Virus record (IMG/VR): IMGVR_UViG_2698536395_000029
Length of the DNA stretch: 15,001 bases
Reading direction: 5' to 3' (one strand)
DNA from: a virus
Lineage: Duplodnaviria > Heunggongvirae > Uroviricota > Caudoviricetes
Part shown: positions 3,449 through 13,409 of the stretch, one piece after another
How positions within the stretch are numbered: position 1 is the stretch's first letter
Layout of the letters: the number at the start of each line of letters is the position of its first letter
Translations under genes and position numbers: made by a program
The notes under the pieces: generated by a model
Database searches by the model: none
Told to the model about the DNA's origin: nothing
The model's input: only the letters and a program-made list of their open reading frames with translations

Positions 3449-3889
3449 TCATTCATCAGCGTCATACATCCAGTTATTGCGGTTAGCGGCCCGTTCTTCC
3501 TCTTCACGAAATCCACCTGCGGCACGCTTGCTTTTTGTTGCCGGATCAAGCCACTTCGTTTTCTGGTTATGACACGCCTGGCACAATGGCTGATGGTTCC
3601 ATTCGGGCCAGAAGAGAACATCATCACCGCCATTAATCGGGATAATGTGATCCACCACCACGGCGGGCGTATATATCCCCTTCTCAAGGCATCGCACGCA
3701 TAACGGGTTTTTACTCAGATACATGGCGCGGTATTTTTCCCACTGTCTGGAGTACCCACGCGCGCGGCGGTGTCCTCGTCTGGCATCCTCTGCACGCCAT
3801 GCCGCCCGCCTGTGCTCCTCACACTTGCCGGACTTAACGCGCCTGTTACAGCCTGGTTCTGTACATCGTCTTAATGGTTGCCACGGCAT
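3449..3889 (-). CDS. HNH endonuclease (terminase-associated)
   Basis: 146 aa; cysteine pairs CTEPGC and CVRC, then DHIIP...N...W..NHQPLCQACHNQKT, an HNH signature. ATG at 3889 overlaps the connector stop. Confidence 0.9.
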   Translation of the reverse strand: MPWQPLRRCTEPGCNRRVKSGKCEEHRRAAWRAEDARRGHRRARGYSRQWEKYRAMYLSKNPLCVRCLEKGIYTPAVVVDHIIPINGGDDVLFWPEWNHQPLCQACHNQKTKWLDPATKSKRAAGGFREEEERAANRNNWMYDADE

Positions 3890-8140: not shown

Positions 8141-8413
8141 TTAGCTGTCCTGGTAATTGCGCCATATTTCATCACCAGCACCATCTATCCCCATTTCGGC
8201 ATAAGTGCGATCGACTGCCTTTTTCAGGTCTCCGTAATTATCCGGTGGCTCCGGTGGCCTCTGTGCCTTCCTGCAACATTCCAGCCGTCGCATCGTAACC
8301 TGATGCCGTTCCTTGTCTGTCTCCACCAGCAGCATGACTTCACCCCATCGCGCCGCCGCCCTCCGGTAAAAGCCTTTCGCCTCGAGTTCTTCCGCTATGC
8401 GGTCATGTACCAT
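8141..8413 (-). CDS. PerC-family-like transcriptional regulator (90 aa)
   Basis: Start taken at ATG 8413 (MVHDRIAEEL) with GAGGGGG SD. The motif AEELEAKGFYRRAAARWGEV...MRRLEC resembles the PerC/Pch signature (A..LE..G.WRRAA..W). From memory. Confidence 0.5.
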   Translation of the reverse strand: MVHDRIAEELEAKGFYRRAAARWGEVMLLVETDKERHQVTMRRLECCRKAQRPPEPPDNYGDLKKAVDRTYAEMGIDGAGDEIWRNYQDS

Positions 8414-9397: not shown

Positions 9398-11152
9398 TTA
9401 TAAAAACGCGTCGCACTCGTCTGTTGTTATTGCGTTAGTCTGCGTTACTCCCTTAACTTTCCGCGTAATATATTCATGTCCGTAAACTTTCGCGGCTGGC
9501 TTCATAGCCTTGCCAAAGTCATTTACGTTTAGCGGTTTGCTCCTGCCTGCGTACGCCATAAACGCCAGATAGACGCGGTAAAGGCTGTTTCTGGTCGTGT
9601 ACTTCACTGAATCGCCACCGCCGCCCATCATCAGGCCGCGTGCTTCCTCCAGAAAATTCAGGAACTGGCAAAACTCAATAACCGGATCCGTCTGTTGCTT
9701 TATTGCCAGAGCTTCATCACCGTCACGCTGTTCCAGTAGTAAAGCCCGTGCCTTCTCAGGGTCGGTAAAGTTCGCCAGCAATCGGCGGATAATGACAGGG
9801 ATTTCAGCCGCGATCTTTTCCGGTAGCTCCCTGTCTTTTTCGGCCTCACTGACGATATTGTCGAAACGGAAAATCACGCGACGACGTGCCACACCTCCGG
9901 CCCGTTCGGTGAATATCATCGGGTTATTGTTGGTCGCCAGCACCACCGCCCTGATTACAGCCGTGAAACGCTTTTCGTATTTCGGGTTAATTTCCACGGG
10001 GTCACCGCCCGTGATTTTCTTGATGCCCGTTCCTTCGCCTGTATATTTCGGCTGGTCAGCCAGGACGATAAGACGACTCCCGACAACCTGCGCACGTCCA
10101 CCAGCATCATCAAGCGATGTCATTTCAGCGCTTACCGTGTTCTGTTTCCCTGCCAGAAGGCTGGCTATGTGCGTGAATGTACTTTTACCGCTCCCGCCGT
10201 CTCCGGTGGCCTCAATAAACATCTGCCAGTCGTACCGGTTCGCCATAATCATGTACAGCGCGGCACATATACGCATCATCTTGCGCGGGTCTTTTCCGGC
10301 TGCGTGCTCAAGCCATTTATGAAAGTTTGGCGCGTTATCGCGGATGTTCTCCCCTGGTGCTGGTGGCGTGTACTCAATGCCGTTGTGCGTGGTGATCCAG
10401 TTCTCCGGCGTGTGCGGGGAAAATTCCCCCGTTTTCAGGTCAAGCGCACCATTGGCGAACGGCAGCAAATCGCCGGACGGCTCGCCCATTGGTTCGGCAA
10501 TAACTTTTAACGCTTCCACGGCGTTATTGATTACGCGCTTGCTGAAAGTGGCCCTGTGCTCTGAATAGATCGCCACCATTTCGCGGCTAAGTTCCATTGT
10601 GCTGACCGGACACCATACCCCGCCGCGCCATACGTGAACGATTTCACTTTCAGGATGTACGCAAACGCCATCAAAGCGATCGGCAAGCAGCTGCGCGCGC
10701 TCACTGTCCGCCATCTGCGAAAGTTGCGCCTTTTGCTTTACCGGAAGCTCAATGACCAGACCATCAGAAAGATTCTGGCGCTCACGAGCCAGATATTCGC
10801 GCCAGTTCTCCACCTTCTGACCGTGCATACCATCAGGGTAAAAATTTGCATCCTGTACGCCTGCCGCCGCCAGCTTCTGACCAATCGCCTTTATCATTAC
10901 TGGCGCAAGATATCCGGCCCTGAATATGCGCACGGATTTTCTGCCTTCCGGCACAATTTGCAGCTTATCCAGTTCGGATAACTGCTGCTCCCCAAGCCAC
11001 ACAGGAGGCTCATTATCTCCGGCCATACGCGCGTCATGTTCCTGCCATTGTTTTGCGTGTGACCAGGCATCACTACCCGCAAAAATAATGACTTCTGTTT
11101 CTTTGTGTTTTATGCCGCGTGACTGCTGTTTTACGTTCGGTGCCAGTTTCAT
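9398..11152 (-). CDS. Primase/helicase replication protein (P4-alpha-like; D5-type NTPase C-terminal domain)
   Basis: 584 aa; Walker A GDGGSGKST at ~residue 318 with the surrounding D5/P4-family helicase context; N-terminal primase-like region; iteron origin immediately downstream. Confidence 0.85.
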   Translation of the reverse strand: MKLAPNVKQQSRGIKHKETEVIIFAGSDAWSHAKQWQEHDARMAGDNEPPVWLGEQQLSELDKLQIVPEGRKSVRIFRAGYLAPVMIKAIGQKLAAAGVQDANFYPDGMHGQKVENWREYLARERQNLSDGLVIELPVKQKAQLSQMADSERAQLLADRFDGVCVHPESEIVHVWRGGVWCPVSTMELSREMVAIYSEHRATFSKRVINNAVEALKVIAEPMGEPSGDLLPFANGALDLKTGEFSPHTPENWITTHNGIEYTPPAPGENIRDNAPNFHKWLEHAAGKDPRKMMRICAALYMIMANRYDWQMFIEATGDGGSGKSTFTHIASLLAGKQNTVSAEMTSLDDAGGRAQVVGSRLIVLADQPKYTGEGTGIKKITGGDPVEINPKYEKRFTAVIRAVVLATNNNPMIFTERAGGVARRRVIFRFDNIVSEAEKDRELPEKIAAEIPVIIRRLLANFTDPEKARALLLEQRDGDEALAIKQQTDPVIEFCQFLNFLEEARGLMMGGGGDSVKYTTRNSLYRVYLAFMAYAGRSKPLNVNDFGKAMKPAAKVYGHEYITRKVKGVTQTNAITTDECDAFL

Positions 11153-11448
11153 TTTTTACCCCTGAATACGTTAAGCATCTTTTTTATTTCCTGAATATTG
11201 GCGCGTGCTTTCTTCCTGCTGGTTGGTTTACTGCGGGGCGCTGCCTGTACCAGAGAAAAATCACGCCGAAACTGATAAACAGGCATCACGCAATCATATT
11301 CGTAGCCTTCACGGCGGTAGGTTACGCGCCGTTCTTCCACGCCCTTAATCATTACCGTGCCGCCGTACTGGTCGCGGTAAATATCACCGCGCGTAAATTT
11401 AGGGTGAGTGTTGCCACTGGCAGTTAAGCCAGAATATTTAAGTTTCAT
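11149..11448 (-). CDS. Hypothetical basic protein (99 aa)
   Basis: ATG at 11448 with GGAG SD; stop overlaps the primase ATG (ATGA). Confidence 0.55.
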   Translation of the reverse strand: MKLKYSGLTASGNTHPKFTRGDIYRDQYGGTVMIKGVEERRVTYRREGYEYDCVMPVYQFRRDFSLVQAAPRSKPTSRKKARANIQEIKKMLNVFRGKK

Positions 11449-11453
11449 TATTT

Positions 11454-11687
11454 TTATTCTCCGGTGTGCTGTTCTTTATATCTGTCGTGCAATAGATCTA
11501 TTTCTTGCAGTTCCATTATTACAGGCTCAAGAAGCGTTATTAATGCCGTGGCAATTCTTGATTTTTGTTTGTCGCGTTCATTGTCGCCAAGTGTTTCAAG
11601 CCATATGCGCAATATTTCCAGCATGTTTTCACTGTGAGAAAGTGCAAGAAATGCGCGGTATATTGTTTCGTGGTAAATATCACGCAT
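11454..11687 (-). CDS. Hypothetical protein (77 aa)
   Basis: ATG at 11687 with GAGGATG SD; overlaps the upstream gene by 8 nt. Confidence 0.5.
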   Translation of the reverse strand: MRDIYHETIYRAFLALSHSENMLEILRIWLETLGDNERDKQKSRIATALITLLEPVIMELQEIDLLHDRYKEQHTGE

Positions 11688-11913
11688 GGCTTACATCCTC
11701 AGGAAATTTTCTTCTGTAATGCGCCTCTGCCACATATTCCGCATAATCGGCGGCGATATTCAGTACATCAAGCCCCGTTGATTTATATTCTCTCGTGGAA
11801 AGTAAGAAAAAAGCCGCTCTAATAAGCTCTGGCATTGACGAAAGCGCATCAGCCGCATCATCAGGAACGCCGGAAAATTCCTGTTTCAGGGAATTAAAAC
11901 GATCATCACGCAT
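11680..11913 (-). CDS. Hypothetical acidic protein (77 aa)
   Basis: Start set at ATG 11913 (MRDDRFNS) with GGGGGTGG SD; the track's 11940 start lacks an SD and overlaps the upstream gene. Confidence 0.5.
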   Translation of the reverse strand: MRDDRFNSLKQEFSGVPDDAADALSSMPELIRAAFFLLSTREYKSTGLDVLNIAADYAEYVAEAHYRRKFPEDVSHA

Positions 11914-12145
11914 AACCACCCCCATTTTCACAATCAGCAATCAGGATGGCTTTAGCCTCATTCAGCGCCATATCAGCACTAAGTTGCATAACCGCCAGCG
12001 AATGAGGAACGAAAGCCCCGGCATATTCTGTTTCACTGGTGTCGTGCTTATGCGCCCTGTCAGCAATAACAGAAATATCAATCAGCGCATGCATTAGCGT
12101 TATGATGGCTTCGGCGGCTGCGTCCGGACGGGTGTTATTGCACAT
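11906..12145 (-). CDS. Hypothetical protein (79 aa)
   Basis: ATG at 12145 preceded by CAGGAGG; overlaps the stop of the 68-aa gene. Confidence 0.5.
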   Translation of the reverse strand: MCNNTRPDAAAEAIITLMHALIDISVIADRAHKHDTSETEYAGAFVPHSLAVMQLSADMALNEAKAILIADCENGGGYA

Positions 12146-12341
12146 GGCACACCTCCTGACGAATACGGGCAGCGAATACCATCACGCAGCCAGCCGGAGA
12201 TTGCTGGCGTGCTTCCTGTTCGCTGGTGGCCTCAATGGTAATCACGCGCGGTTGTGCCGTGCTCAGGGCGATAAAACGCCAGATGTATTTATTCAGGTCG
12301 TGCGAGTCCCGCCCTTGCGGGTGTGTGGTATGATTTCTCAT
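12135..12341 (-). CDS. Hypothetical protein (68 aa); first gene of the replication operon, possibly Icd-like
   Basis: ATG at 12341 with GAGGT SD. It is the only plausible part of the 342-aa track ORF; the upstream 274 codons are Cys/Arg/Ser-rich antisense of real plus-strand genes. The motif YIWRFIALS...EARQQ...VFAAR vaguely recalls Icd-like proteins (low confidence). Confidence 0.5.
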   Translation of the reverse strand: MRNHTTHPQGRDSHDLNKYIWRFIALSTAQPRVITIEATSEQEARQQSPAGCVMVFAARIRQEVCHVQ

Positions 12342-12379
12342 AGCTACCTCGATACTTTCGCTATCGTTGGTGGTTAGAA

Positions 12380-12410
12380 GCCCTGCGAGTGGTAACGACA
12401 CTTGCGGGGC
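12380..12410. promoter_or_regulatory. Imperfect 12-bp inverted repeat in the divergent control region
   Basis: GCCCTGCGAGTG-gtaacga-CACTTGCGGGGC (10/12 complementary at DNA level); lies in the 5' leader of the minus-strand operon. Confidence 0.45.
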
Positions 12411-12438
12411 TTTGCATTTATGCACCTTGATAATCTCA

Positions 12439-12474
12439 AGGTGTGGCCCACTATATGCTTTAGGTGTGGCCCAC
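12439..12474. promoter_or_regulatory. Two exact 13-bp direct repeats AGGTGTGGCCCAC (candidate operator) overlapping a sigma70-like promoter
   Basis: Copies at 12439-12451 and 12462-12474, 23 bp apart; TTGATA at 12427-12432 and TATACT at 12506-12511 are plausible promoter hexamers upstream of the gene starting at 12541. Confidence 0.5.
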
Positions 12475-12540
12475 GTCAAGGGTTTTATTTGTGCTTTTTC
12501 TGTGTATACTGTCCCCCACCAATCCAACAGAGGAATAGAA

Positions 12541-12720
12541 ATGGCAACGGGTACAACAAACGCAAAATCACAAGCTCTAAAGGCTCGTGTACCACACGAA
12601 ATAGTAAACGCCATGGAATCAGTGAAAGAATCAGGCGAAAGCACATCACAATTCATCATTGCGTCAATGCAAGGCGAGATCAAACGCCGCCAGCGCCGCA
12701 AGGCCAAAGAATCAGAATAA
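12541..12720 (+). CDS. Small DNA-binding protein, probable ribbon-helix-helix fold (59 aa)
   Basis: ATG at 12541 with AGAGGAA SD. The pattern LKARVPHEIVNAMESVKESGESTSQFIIASMQGEI (strand, helix, G-S/T turn, helix) and a basic tail fit CopG/Arc-type RHH proteins. Confidence 0.55.
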   Translation: MATGTTNAKSQALKARVPHEIVNAMESVKESGESTSQFIIASMQGEIKRRQRRKAKESE

Positions 12721-12762
12721 TCACTATCAGCGCCGTGGTGTGAGGTATTACGGCGCATTGCT

Positions 12763-12951
12763 ATGCAGGACAACACAATGACCGATAAAGAATTGACCAA
12801 AACATTATCACCGGCACGGAAAAGACGGCGCAGAAAGATAGAACATGAATCAGAAAGATTCGCGCCATGTGCTTTTGCCCTTGAGCAATTCCTTAAAGAG
12901 TACAGGGAAAAGCGCTCATTGCAGGTATGGCAACGAACTGAACCAGACTGA
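12763..12951 (+). CDS. Hypothetical basic protein (62 aa; start may be 12778)
   Basis: ORF 43 nt downstream of the RHH gene on the same strand, with a poly-basic stretch ARKRRRRK; the SD is weak, so coding status is uncertain. Confidence 0.4.
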   Translation: MQDNTMTDKELTKTLSPARKRRRRKIEHESERFAPCAFALEQFLKEYREKRSLQVWQRTEPD

Positions 12952-13036
12952 TTGCATTGCCCACCAGCCTGATAGCGGCTATCATCCCCGTGCTTATGTT
13001 TGGGATCACACACACAAACGGCGCAGCGGGTTATCT

Positions 13037-13064
13037 GTTCAGAAAGGCGGCTCCATTTCGGGGC
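13037..13064 (+). terminator. Rho-independent terminator ending the plus-strand RHH operon
   Basis: GCGGCTCC-atttc-GGGGCCGC (8-bp stem with one G-U pair) followed by T7. Confidence 0.75.
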
Positions 13065-13220
13065 CGCTTTTTTTATGCCTGAAAAACCCCAATTTTGTGG
13101 TTTTCCAGTCTCACCAGGGCGAACGAATCCCCGCCCACGTTCTGGCGTATATTCAATCTTCATGGTTATAGCTCTGTGTTCAGATGATTGATGTGTGGCG
13201 GCTGTGTGCCGCCAGCGTGA

Positions 13221-13409
13221 TTAATGAACTGCCTTGCAGCTATCCTTCCAGGCCAGAACCTCGGATAAAGACCAGCCAACGGAACGACCGCCAAGTTTAC
13301 GACGTGATGGGAATTGTCCGGCCTTTTCCAGGCGGTAGCGGCATGAGCGGCTAAGGCCTGTTAGCTTTTCGCATTCTTTTTCACGTATAAACCGATCAGT
13401 GCTTAACAC
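13221..13409 (-). CDS. alpA: AlpA-family transcriptional regulator / excisionase-like HTH protein
   Basis: 62 aa; LTGLSRSCRYRLEKAGQFPSRRKLGGRSVGWSLSEVLAW matches the AlpA signature (TGLSRST.YR....G.FP.P.KLG.R.V.W...EV..W). Start is GTG at 13409 with AAGGGGG SD. Confidence 0.85.
   Translation of the reverse strand: MLSTDRFIREKECEKLTGLSRSCRYRLEKAGQFPSRRKLGGRSVGWSLSEVLAWKDSCKAVH

Follow-up and report, generated by a model that had tools for sequence, protein, structure and literature searches.

Five small genes ahead of the replicase of an Escherichia coli satellite island: a probable early accessory cassette in a P4-style operon

A 15,001-nucleotide stretch of DNA, held in IMG/VR as the virus record IMGVR_UViG_2698536395_000029 and called the window below, carries five small open reading frames (ORFs) on its minus strand at 12341..11149, ahead of the gene for a primase (D5-type replicase; 11152..9398, minus strand, as given in the ORF list). 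Judged by their conservation, the five ORFs are real genes under purifying selection and tightly packed. On the reading that we favor and hold to be reasonably probable, they form the early accessory cassette of an operon organized like the left operon of satellite P4, carried by a satellite of the capsid-forming phage-inducible chromosomal island (PICI) type and expressed by the mechanism proposed in the Discussion.

The five ORFs are conserved as genes

ORF1 to ORF5 encode 68, 79, 77, 77 and 99 amino acids (aa). The junctions, from ORF1–ORF2 to the one with the primase, measure −11, −8, −8, +5 and −4 nucleotides (nt), the last being an ATGA overlap. The initial annotation had described five overlapping ORFs of 68–99 aa; its limits and strand are exact, but ORF4 and ORF5 are separated by a 5-nt gap. 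A Shine-Dalgarno (SD) sequence of the GGAG/GAGG type is found 6–11 nt upstream of each cassette start, within the preceding gene. The start of ORF3 was taken as the ATG that gives 77 aa, while the program-made ORF list gives a TTG start and 86 aa.

All five ORFs are annotated coding sequences in a RefSeq locus of 100% identity, and each matches a PHROG family of the same length. That the ORFs should be kept as coding in related elements was the point on which the initial annotation had offered to be judged, and on this point it stands. All five reading frames are retained in diverged E. coli and IMG/VR relatives, and pairwise ratios of nonsynonymous to synonymous substitutions (dN/dS), obtained against 14 loci of E. 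coli, Shigella and E. albertii, are about 0.1–0.45 for every ORF where divergence is measurable. Nearly all gene junctions lie between −11 and +6 nt across 108 related loci. As had been supposed, none of the five is structural. Interference had also been suggested as a function; no interference or defense family is matched by the five proteins, which gave no hit at E≤0.1 to the defense models of PADLOC-DB. A sequence search of PDB with ORF1, ORF5 and the divergent YlcI-like protein described below returned no match.

The window is a capsid-forming-PICI-like island

By the annotation of the identical RefSeq locus, the window is an island of about 14 kb inserted in tqsA of E. coli O26:H11 FWSEC0001, and the 1.4 kb around the cassette is 100% identical to that chromosome. 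Genes for an integrase, an AlpA-family regulator, the five small proteins, a 'DNA primase family protein', a single-stranded DNA-binding protein (SSB) and a PerC-family regulator lie on one strand; these are followed on the island by genes for major capsid protein, prohead protease, portal, head closure, connector, HNH, TerS and TerL. The AlpA and primase domains were confirmed by Pfam domain search. The gene set that marks a capsid-forming PICI, namely int, alpA and a replicase together with its own capsid, protease, portal, connector and terminase in about 15 kb at a specific site, is found here. By its gene content, the window is an island of E. coli O26:H11 that resembles the capsid-forming PICIs. 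EcCIEDL933 and other capsid-forming PICIs are induced by a helper, packaged in their own small capsids and dependent on helper tails (10.1101/2022.09.08.507074). The alpA gene of the window (13221..13409, minus strand; PF05930, 5e-18) is a homologue of P4 vis, with 47% identity to P4 ORF88/Vis. In capsid-forming PICIs alpA is needed for induction (10.1101/2022.09.08.507074), and a role of alpA in PICI induction has also been reported elsewhere (PMC6092414).

At least part of the cassette region occurs in 1824–1951 of 5426 complete E. coli genomes, and about 410–455 of the 5426 carry at least 80% of the cassette-region query. When the five concatenated proteins were compared by tblastn with 50,697 phage records, the single match was a 16.5-kb induced element and P1 was not among the matches, which indicates that the cassette is not found in deposited phage genomes.

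ORF1 is an Icd-like gene nested at the end of a long open frame

ORF1 (12341..12135, minus strand) encodes a basic protein (pI 8.9), is preceded by the SD GAGG at 6 nt and shows dN/dS of 0.11–0.34. Over a 48-residue domain it matches NF033153 (phage_ICD_like) with 69.8 bits (cut-off 25, E 1.5e-19). P4 Kil (65 aa) matches the same family with 76.1 bits (E 1.6e-21), and phrog_1743 is matched by both proteins. The earlier suggestion that the first ORF may be Icd-like is thereby upheld, and on these profile matches ORF1 is a P4 Kil/P1 Icd-like protein of the same family as P4 Kil. The label 'transcriptional repressor' carried by these families in PHROGs most likely derives from an old P4 'cI gene product' ORF that contains Kil.

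Upstream of ORF1 and in frame with it, a stop-free stretch of 293 codons (12342..13220, minus strand) extends from the alpA stop codon (TAA) to the ORF1 ATG, with its first ATG at 13163. There are no stops in the ORF1 frame over this stretch, against 28 and 13 in the other two frames, and none of 2000 shuffles matched this. Among 98 non-identical relatives the median upstream stop-free run is 268 codons, while the two other frames have medians of 6 and 0. On transcripts from the internal promoter ORF1 would be the first gene to be translated; it lies nested, in the same phase, in the 3′ end of this Eta-like frame. The eta/kil arrangement, a nested Icd-like ORF that ends a long frame after alpA/vis, is thus present in the window. 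In P4 the corresponding frame stays open from a point within vis (8821) up to the stop codon of kil (8168), and its N-terminal part is Pfam Phage_ASH; P4 makes both Eta and the nested Kil (PMC10111431, summarizing Forti et al.).

The frame passes, antisense, across ylcI and orf62 as well as the promoter region and a plus-strand terminator, all described in the next section. Its translation upstream of ORF1 is rich in Cys, Arg and Ser and poorly conserved (40–77% identity, with local frame-compensating indels). Nevertheless, openness and a total length in multiples of three are preserved. As this upstream part does not look like protein and is poorly conserved while its openness is kept, we regard it as probably a conduit for translation and not a folded domain. 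The frame of most E. coli loci begins within the 3′ end of the co-directional gene before it (alpA or antA), or right at that end. For instance, in the relative L014 it starts at the 3′ end of an antA/antB-family gene and not of alpA. Genes of this antirepressor family lie between alpA and the ylcI region in some relatives (4636–5436 in L013 and 5322–6122 in L014).

A separate observation concerns the relative L012 (3045–4277), where the ORF1 frame is open for 689 codons; after crossing an insert of about 1 kb that does not resemble protein-coding sequence, it continues into sequence like that of ORF2/ORF3. This long frame is annotated in RefSeq as a 410-aa 'Icd-like protein'.

A divergent protein with allele-matched repeats and a structured leader

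The divergent promoter proposed in the initial annotation exists. It is a sigma-70-type promoter (12439..12479, minus strand) with a −35 TTGACG at 12479–12474 and a −10 TATAGT at 12455–12450; the promoter scan gives 10 of 12 matches, and the −35 is conserved in relatives. Facing away from it, a gene for 59 aa (12541..12720, plus strand) encodes a protein of the YlcI/YnfO family (NF041551, YlcI_YnfO_N, 7.8e-19) and lies antisense within the Eta-like frame. Two 13-bp repeats, which are candidate operators, are located on the minus strand at 12439–12451 (over +1) and 12462–12474 (just after the −35), and are allele-specific at fixed positions. The divergent protein occurs as at least 20 alleles among 101 related loci, each allele with its own repeat at the same positions; the −35 and the leader are constant across loci while the repeats change with the repressor allele. 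Allele-matched repeats at fixed promoter positions are the pattern of a repressor-operator immunity pair. Position-equivalent alleles of the YlcI-like protein match Arc, RHH_1, HicB and CopG, all below threshold, and the protein is probably a ribbon-helix-helix (RHH) repressor of the operon. The global repressor in Gram-negative PICIs has been described as unclear (PMC6092414). The YlcI-like protein, which goes unmentioned in the PICI literature examined, could be a master repressor that comes in many immunity types.

Downstream (3′) of ylcI, a 62-aa ORF (orf62; 12763–12951, plus strand) has 100% protein conservation in several loci with differing ylcI and no family match. A strong intrinsic terminator (13047–13074, plus strand) lies inside the Eta-like frame and consists of an 8-bp stem, with the hairpin at 13047–13067, and a T7 run. 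This hairpin could also act on minus-strand transcripts that come from alpA.

The 5′ leader of the operon (12342..12443, minus strand) is structured. Folding of the RNA between the predicted start and the ORF1 ATG yields three hairpins, with −34.5 kcal/mol and a z score of −3.9: H1 at 12423–12443, H2 at 12378–12412 and H3 at 12350–12366, with CUAACCACCAA at 12363–12377. H2 is present in all 31 distinct variants with wholly different, covarying stem sequences (mean −16.8 kcal/mol, mean z −3.6), and it ends 1–2 nt ahead of the invariant CUAACCACCAA. H2 was scored by folding each sequence separately; RNAalifold on a MAFFT alignment missed it, as stems of variable length were misaligned. In H3 the stem is kept while the 7-nt loop is variable, and the hairpin partly pairs with, and so sequesters, the SD of ORF1. 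No Rfam family matches the leader. The order of hairpin and then motif presumably recalls the boxB-boxA arrangement of rrn operons.

ORF5 is inherited with an N-terminal domain of the replicase

ORF5 (11448..11149, minus strand) encodes a highly conserved and very basic protein (pI 10.3) of 99 aa, which matches DUF4222 (PF13973) with 85.7 bits (cut-off 27, 1.5e-24) over profile positions 1–53 of 53. Its AlphaFold2 (AF2) model is a five-stranded barrel of the SH3/Tudor/KOW-like type with a basic C-terminal helix, the core having a predicted local distance difference test (pLDDT) score of about 90, and a fold search of BFVD retrieved uncharacterized small barrels only. The adjoining replicase begins with a domain of about 125 aa (residues 1–125; 10778..11152, minus strand). 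By tblastn, and in the relatives L004 and L011, this module is 62–82% identical over residues 1–125/163 to RepA- and DUF927-type proteins. A Pfam search of the replicase found no domain before residue 153, and the sole match of the module is phrog_2850, a family of unknown function.

With the leader motif, 94 complete cassettes were collected from IMG/VR and E. coli, and the association was followed in them. Gene families were assigned by strict-coverage clustering, with the chimera of the locus L098 left out. (A scan of genome contigs with the DUF4222 alignment gave 2 loci only, its patterns being too specific.) DUF4222 stands directly before the replicase in 87 of the 94 cassettes, and all 87 of these replicases have the shared N-terminal domain of about 125 aa, although they comprise 51 D5-type primases, 20 RepA helicases and 16 DUF927 proteins. 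Of the seven replicases that lack the domain, none is preceded by DUF4222. This complete co-occurrence across three replicase types suggests that ORF5 is probably a cofactor or regulator that works together with the N-terminal domain when replication is initiated. A role in manipulating the helper, which the initial annotation had proposed for the whole group, finds no support for ORF5, which appears tied to the replication protein instead.

Like ORF5, the P4 gene cnr (orf106) is a small gene immediately before the replication initiator. Cnr, a copy-number regulator, binds the alpha protein, whose DNA binding it modulates. ORF5, a basic beta-barrel of DUF4222, is unrelated in sequence to Cnr (DUF5375), and the analogy is one of position only: ORF4 and ORF5 gave no match to DUF5375 (PF17345), which P4 orf106 matches at 2.9e-63.

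The middle genes are exchangeable

ORF2 to ORF4 are acidic and helical. ORF2 (12145..11906, minus strand; 79 aa, pI 4.7) is predicted to form a helical hairpin, matches phrog_5146 and the N-terminal half of phrog_2512, and has dN/dS of 0.13–0.45. ORF3 (11913..11680, minus strand; 77 aa, pI 4.8) matches phrog_24341 and the C-terminal half of phrog_2512, with dN/dS of about 0.1–0.3. ORF4 (11687..11454, minus strand; 77 aa, pI 5.1) matches phrog_2196 at 3e-41, with dN/dS of 0.16–0.34. None of the three has a match in Pfam, NCBIfam, PADLOC or PDB. Relatives of ORF4 fall into 527 database clusters, all of unnamed E. coli proteins without a Pfam domain, and the ORF2/ORF3 family has 63 representatives among 1.84 billion proteins.

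In the 94 cassettes ORF1 and ORF5 are separated by one to six genes, which belong to at least 15 families and mostly encode acidic proteins. Of these cassettes, 45 contain ORF4, 36 contain ORF2 and 25 contain ORF3, and the exact gene order of the window recurs in only four. ORF4 is the commonest gene directly upstream of DUF4222 (44 of 88 cassettes). Identity shifts abruptly from gene to gene, which points to recombination at gene boundaries. These comparisons place ORF2 to ORF4, as small acidic and helical proteins, in a pool that is reshuffled from element to element.

ORF2 and ORF3 have a closer relation to each other. At their junction (11906..11926, minus strand), aligned with L004 and L011, a G-run is followed by ATGCGTGA, and one base more or less in the G-run makes the difference between two overlapping genes and one fusion of 154 aa. 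Many E. coli carry the fused form, which accounts for at least 120 clusters. In a census, the two were fused in 11 cases, adjacent but separate in 10 and interrupted by an intervening gene in 12, and ORF2 occurred without ORF3 in 14. The fused, adjacent and interrupted forms are about equally common, and this suggests that the products of ORF2 and ORF3 may act together.

Larger proteins with ORF2/3-like segments (P0242, P0302 and others) had no domain that was informative, and P0242 represents a read-through frame like that of L012.

Comparison with P4, P1 and other PICIs

Among known systems the left operon of P4, with the order vis, eta/kil, epsilon, orf151, orf106 (cnr) and alpha, comes closest to the window. 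Like the window, it combines an AlpA/Vis homologue, a long frame ending in a nested Kil/Icd-like ORF, small genes and a primase-helicase, and its small genes after kil are joined by 8-nt overlaps, as ORF2 to ORF4 are here. Unlike the window, P4 has the C4/CI and isrK/seqA RNAs; in their stead the window has a divergent protein-coding repressor candidate inside the Eta-like frame. ORF2 to ORF5 are not recognized as members of the P4 epsilon, ORF151 or Cnr families, and the replicase is a shorter D5-type protein than that of P4. An Rfam scan at E≤1 detected neither C4/CI nor isrK/seqA upstream of ORF1, and nothing relevant in the rest of the window. C4/isrK RNAs were found in the relatives L002 and L003 (78–82 bits) and in P4 (75 bits), in each case just upstream of the Icd-like domain and in the region of the RefSeq 'ash family protein' pseudogene. 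Compared with L003, the first 18 post-leader codons of the window's ORF1 are joined directly to the Icd domain, and the RNA module is missing. What the window shares with P4 is the architecture, alpA/vis and the eta/kil device, while the small genes after kil are not demonstrably homologous; the RNA immunity module appears to be replaced by the protein repressor candidate.

As for the 'ash' annotations themselves, Pfam Phage_ASH and RefSeq 'ash' pseudogenes overlie C4/CI and isrK/seqA DNA at 3739–3924 in L002, 2758–2959 in L003 and 8420–8705 in P4 (L016). This overlap suggests that the 'Ash' family is largely a translation of RNA genes inside the eta frame. The symR-like Rfam matches seen in relatives were below threshold and were disregarded.

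The immI region of P1/P7 (c4–icd–ant) resembles the window in that its first translated ORF is Icd-like (NF033153). In P1 immI, translation of icd is needed for the expression of ant, and Icd inhibits cell division. By analogy, translation of the Icd-like ORF is expected to drive the overlapping downstream gene. The window differs from immI in having no c4 RNA and no Ant-type antirepressor downstream; some of its relatives have antA/antB upstream instead.

With Gram-negative and capsid-forming PICIs such as EcCICFT073 and EcCIEDL933, the window shares the int-alpA-rep backbone as well as capsid, portal, protease, connector, HNH and terminase genes. Homology of PICIs to P4 has been described as limited to AlpA, Pri-Rep and Int (PMC6092414), and the small-gene zone of the window is the counterpart of the 'Bro zone', which lies between the zones for integration and for replication (PMC10111431). 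The PICI literature examined contains no description of these five genes, of the repressor-operator pair or of the structured leader.

Discussion

The features of the cassette can be assembled into a mechanism in the manner of P4. In the quiescent island, the YlcI-like protein, probably of the RHH type, would sit on the two promoter operators and keep the operon off. When a helper phage turns on alpA, transcripts from upstream would be translated through the Eta-like frame, and this translation would disrupt the terminator hairpin at 13047–13067 and shield the RNA from Rho, as for P4 eta. Transcription would then continue into ORF1 and the following genes, and translation of ORF1 would be handed on to ORF2–5 and the primase via the overlapping stop/start junctions. 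ORF1 probably also blocks division of the host cell, like P1 Icd and P4 Kil. ORF5, the positional analogue of P4 Cnr, would probably take part at initiation with the N-terminal domain of the replicase, and ORF2–4 would serve as swappable accessory proteins directed at the helper phage or the host.

Several points weigh against this scheme. The window is without the C4/isrK immunity RNA module, so that the P4 mechanism is not simply transferable. The ATG of the Eta-like frame at 13163 has no clear SD and lies 58 nt past the alpA stop, and in the L001 locus (100% related) the frame is out of phase with alpA; the coupling of alpA to the Eta-like frame is therefore conjectural. The motifs in which ORF2 resembles epsilon and ORF5 resembles orf151 are suggestive, but the likeness is weak, with hhalign probabilities of 12–13% and no bridging sequences. 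The AF2 model of the ORF2–ORF3 fusion is helical and of low confidence (pLDDT 56), which makes it a poor model. Finally, the co-inheritance of DUF4222 with the N-terminal domain could reflect plain physical linkage and not interaction.

The number of genes in the cassette can be counted differently. ORF1 would be no separate gene if the real product were a protein of 342 aa, from the ATG at 13163 to the stop at 12135, with ylcI and orf62 on the plus strand as artefacts. The frame is indeed stop-free and open in most relatives, and RefSeq records over this stretch sometimes give a pseudogene or 'Icd-like' proteins of 135, 310 or 410 aa. We consider this very unlikely, as the upstream translation keeps openness and length phase but little protein sequence, and ylcI matches a curated family with paired alleles and operators in a plus-strand unit that has its own promoter-like −10 and strong terminator. 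The SD and ATG of ORF1 are moreover conserved behind a conserved leader, and P4 makes the long and the nested protein side by side. Alternatively, ORF2 and ORF3 might be a frameshifted, decaying copy of the 154-aa gene, in which case the window would hold four functional genes. A single base of the G-run separates the window from the very common fused form; yet both halves are intact, with an ATG, with GGGGGTGG as an SD-like element and with the ATGCGTGA junction that is also present at ORF3/ORF4, both have dN/dS below 1, and the separate adjacent form is about as frequent as the fusion, with interrupted copies and ORF2 without ORF3 also occurring. Decay is thus an improbable explanation, and five genes remain the preferred count.

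For the function of ORF2–4 two alternatives deserve weighing. The initial annotation had seen here a site for manipulating the helper. Its position does match the part of the P4 operon that holds the helper derepressor, and ORF2–4 might be derepressors of the epsilon type, which bind the helper repressor, switch the helper on and so gain tails. ORF2 occupies the place of epsilon directly after kil with an overlapping junction, its residues 44–67 resemble epsilon 53–76 in blastp and phmmer (YIPH...LNELKA and FVPH...LNEAKA, a weak likeness), and a satellite with its own capsids would profit from inducing tail donors. The profile comparison of ORF2/3 with epsilon by hhalign is weak as well (24 columns, P 0.002, probability just 13%). 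None of ORF2–5 belongs to the epsilon 'Derepression' family (PF25738; no match at E≤1, against 9.2e-51 for epsilon itself), no link to epsilon was seen for any of the 63 proteins that represent the ORF2/ORF3 family (the best E value in this set of 63 being 0.02), and ORF2 and epsilon belong to different PHROGs. An epsilon-type role is accordingly held to be unlikely. A possible though still doubtful alternative is that ORF2–4 are counter-defense or host-takeover proteins, for instance DNA mimics or inhibitors of restriction or other defenses, expressed early and swapped under the pressure of an arms race. Small, acidic, helical proteins at the start of an early operon, a narrow distribution, and a variable gene content with mosaic identity levels between two fixed flanks would suit such a role. 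It draws on composition and variability alone, and no named anti-restriction or anti-defense family was matched in Pfam, NCBIfam or PHROGs. The favored scheme of a P4-style accessory cassette leaves the target of ORF2–4 as helper or host, and a regulatory role is also conceivable for them.

A more specific proposal can be offered tentatively. The interval between Kil/Icd and DUF4222 might be a dedicated exchange site at which E. coli satellites trade genes for small acidic effectors that act against helpers or host defenses. The whole operon might be governed by a kind of switch new to Gram-negative PICIs, with a heteroimmune family of RHH master repressors whose genes lie antisense within a translated, Eta-like frame. 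As a part of this proposal, AlpA-driven transcription and translation through the Eta-like frame may unlock the operon while also running into the repressor gene and silencing it.

Parts of the region are carried by about one third of complete E. coli genomes, including enterohemorrhagic (EHEC) lineages. The analysis ties the regulation of PICIs and capsid-forming PICIs to the well-studied eta/kil logic of P4 and offers a candidate master repressor with many immunity types where the PICI literature examined names none for Gram-negative PICIs. DUF4222 emerges from it as the likely partner of a domain of the replicase, and a variable gene slot is indicated in which proteins for helper control or counter-defense could be found. 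These points bear on how satellites that spread virulence genes are turned on and pass from strain to strain. The window also has a gene of the PerC family 3′ of the SSB gene (8141–8413, minus strand, from the island annotation); a related PerC-like protein of a PICI was reported to repress expression of the locus of enterocyte effacement (PMC11773190).

A natural chimera was also observed. The first cassette ORF of the relative L098 joins, in frame, the N-terminal 40 residues of an Icd-like protein to the C-terminal half of an ORF2-like protein, and the joint lies at a short SE(Q/T)E motif common to both parts.

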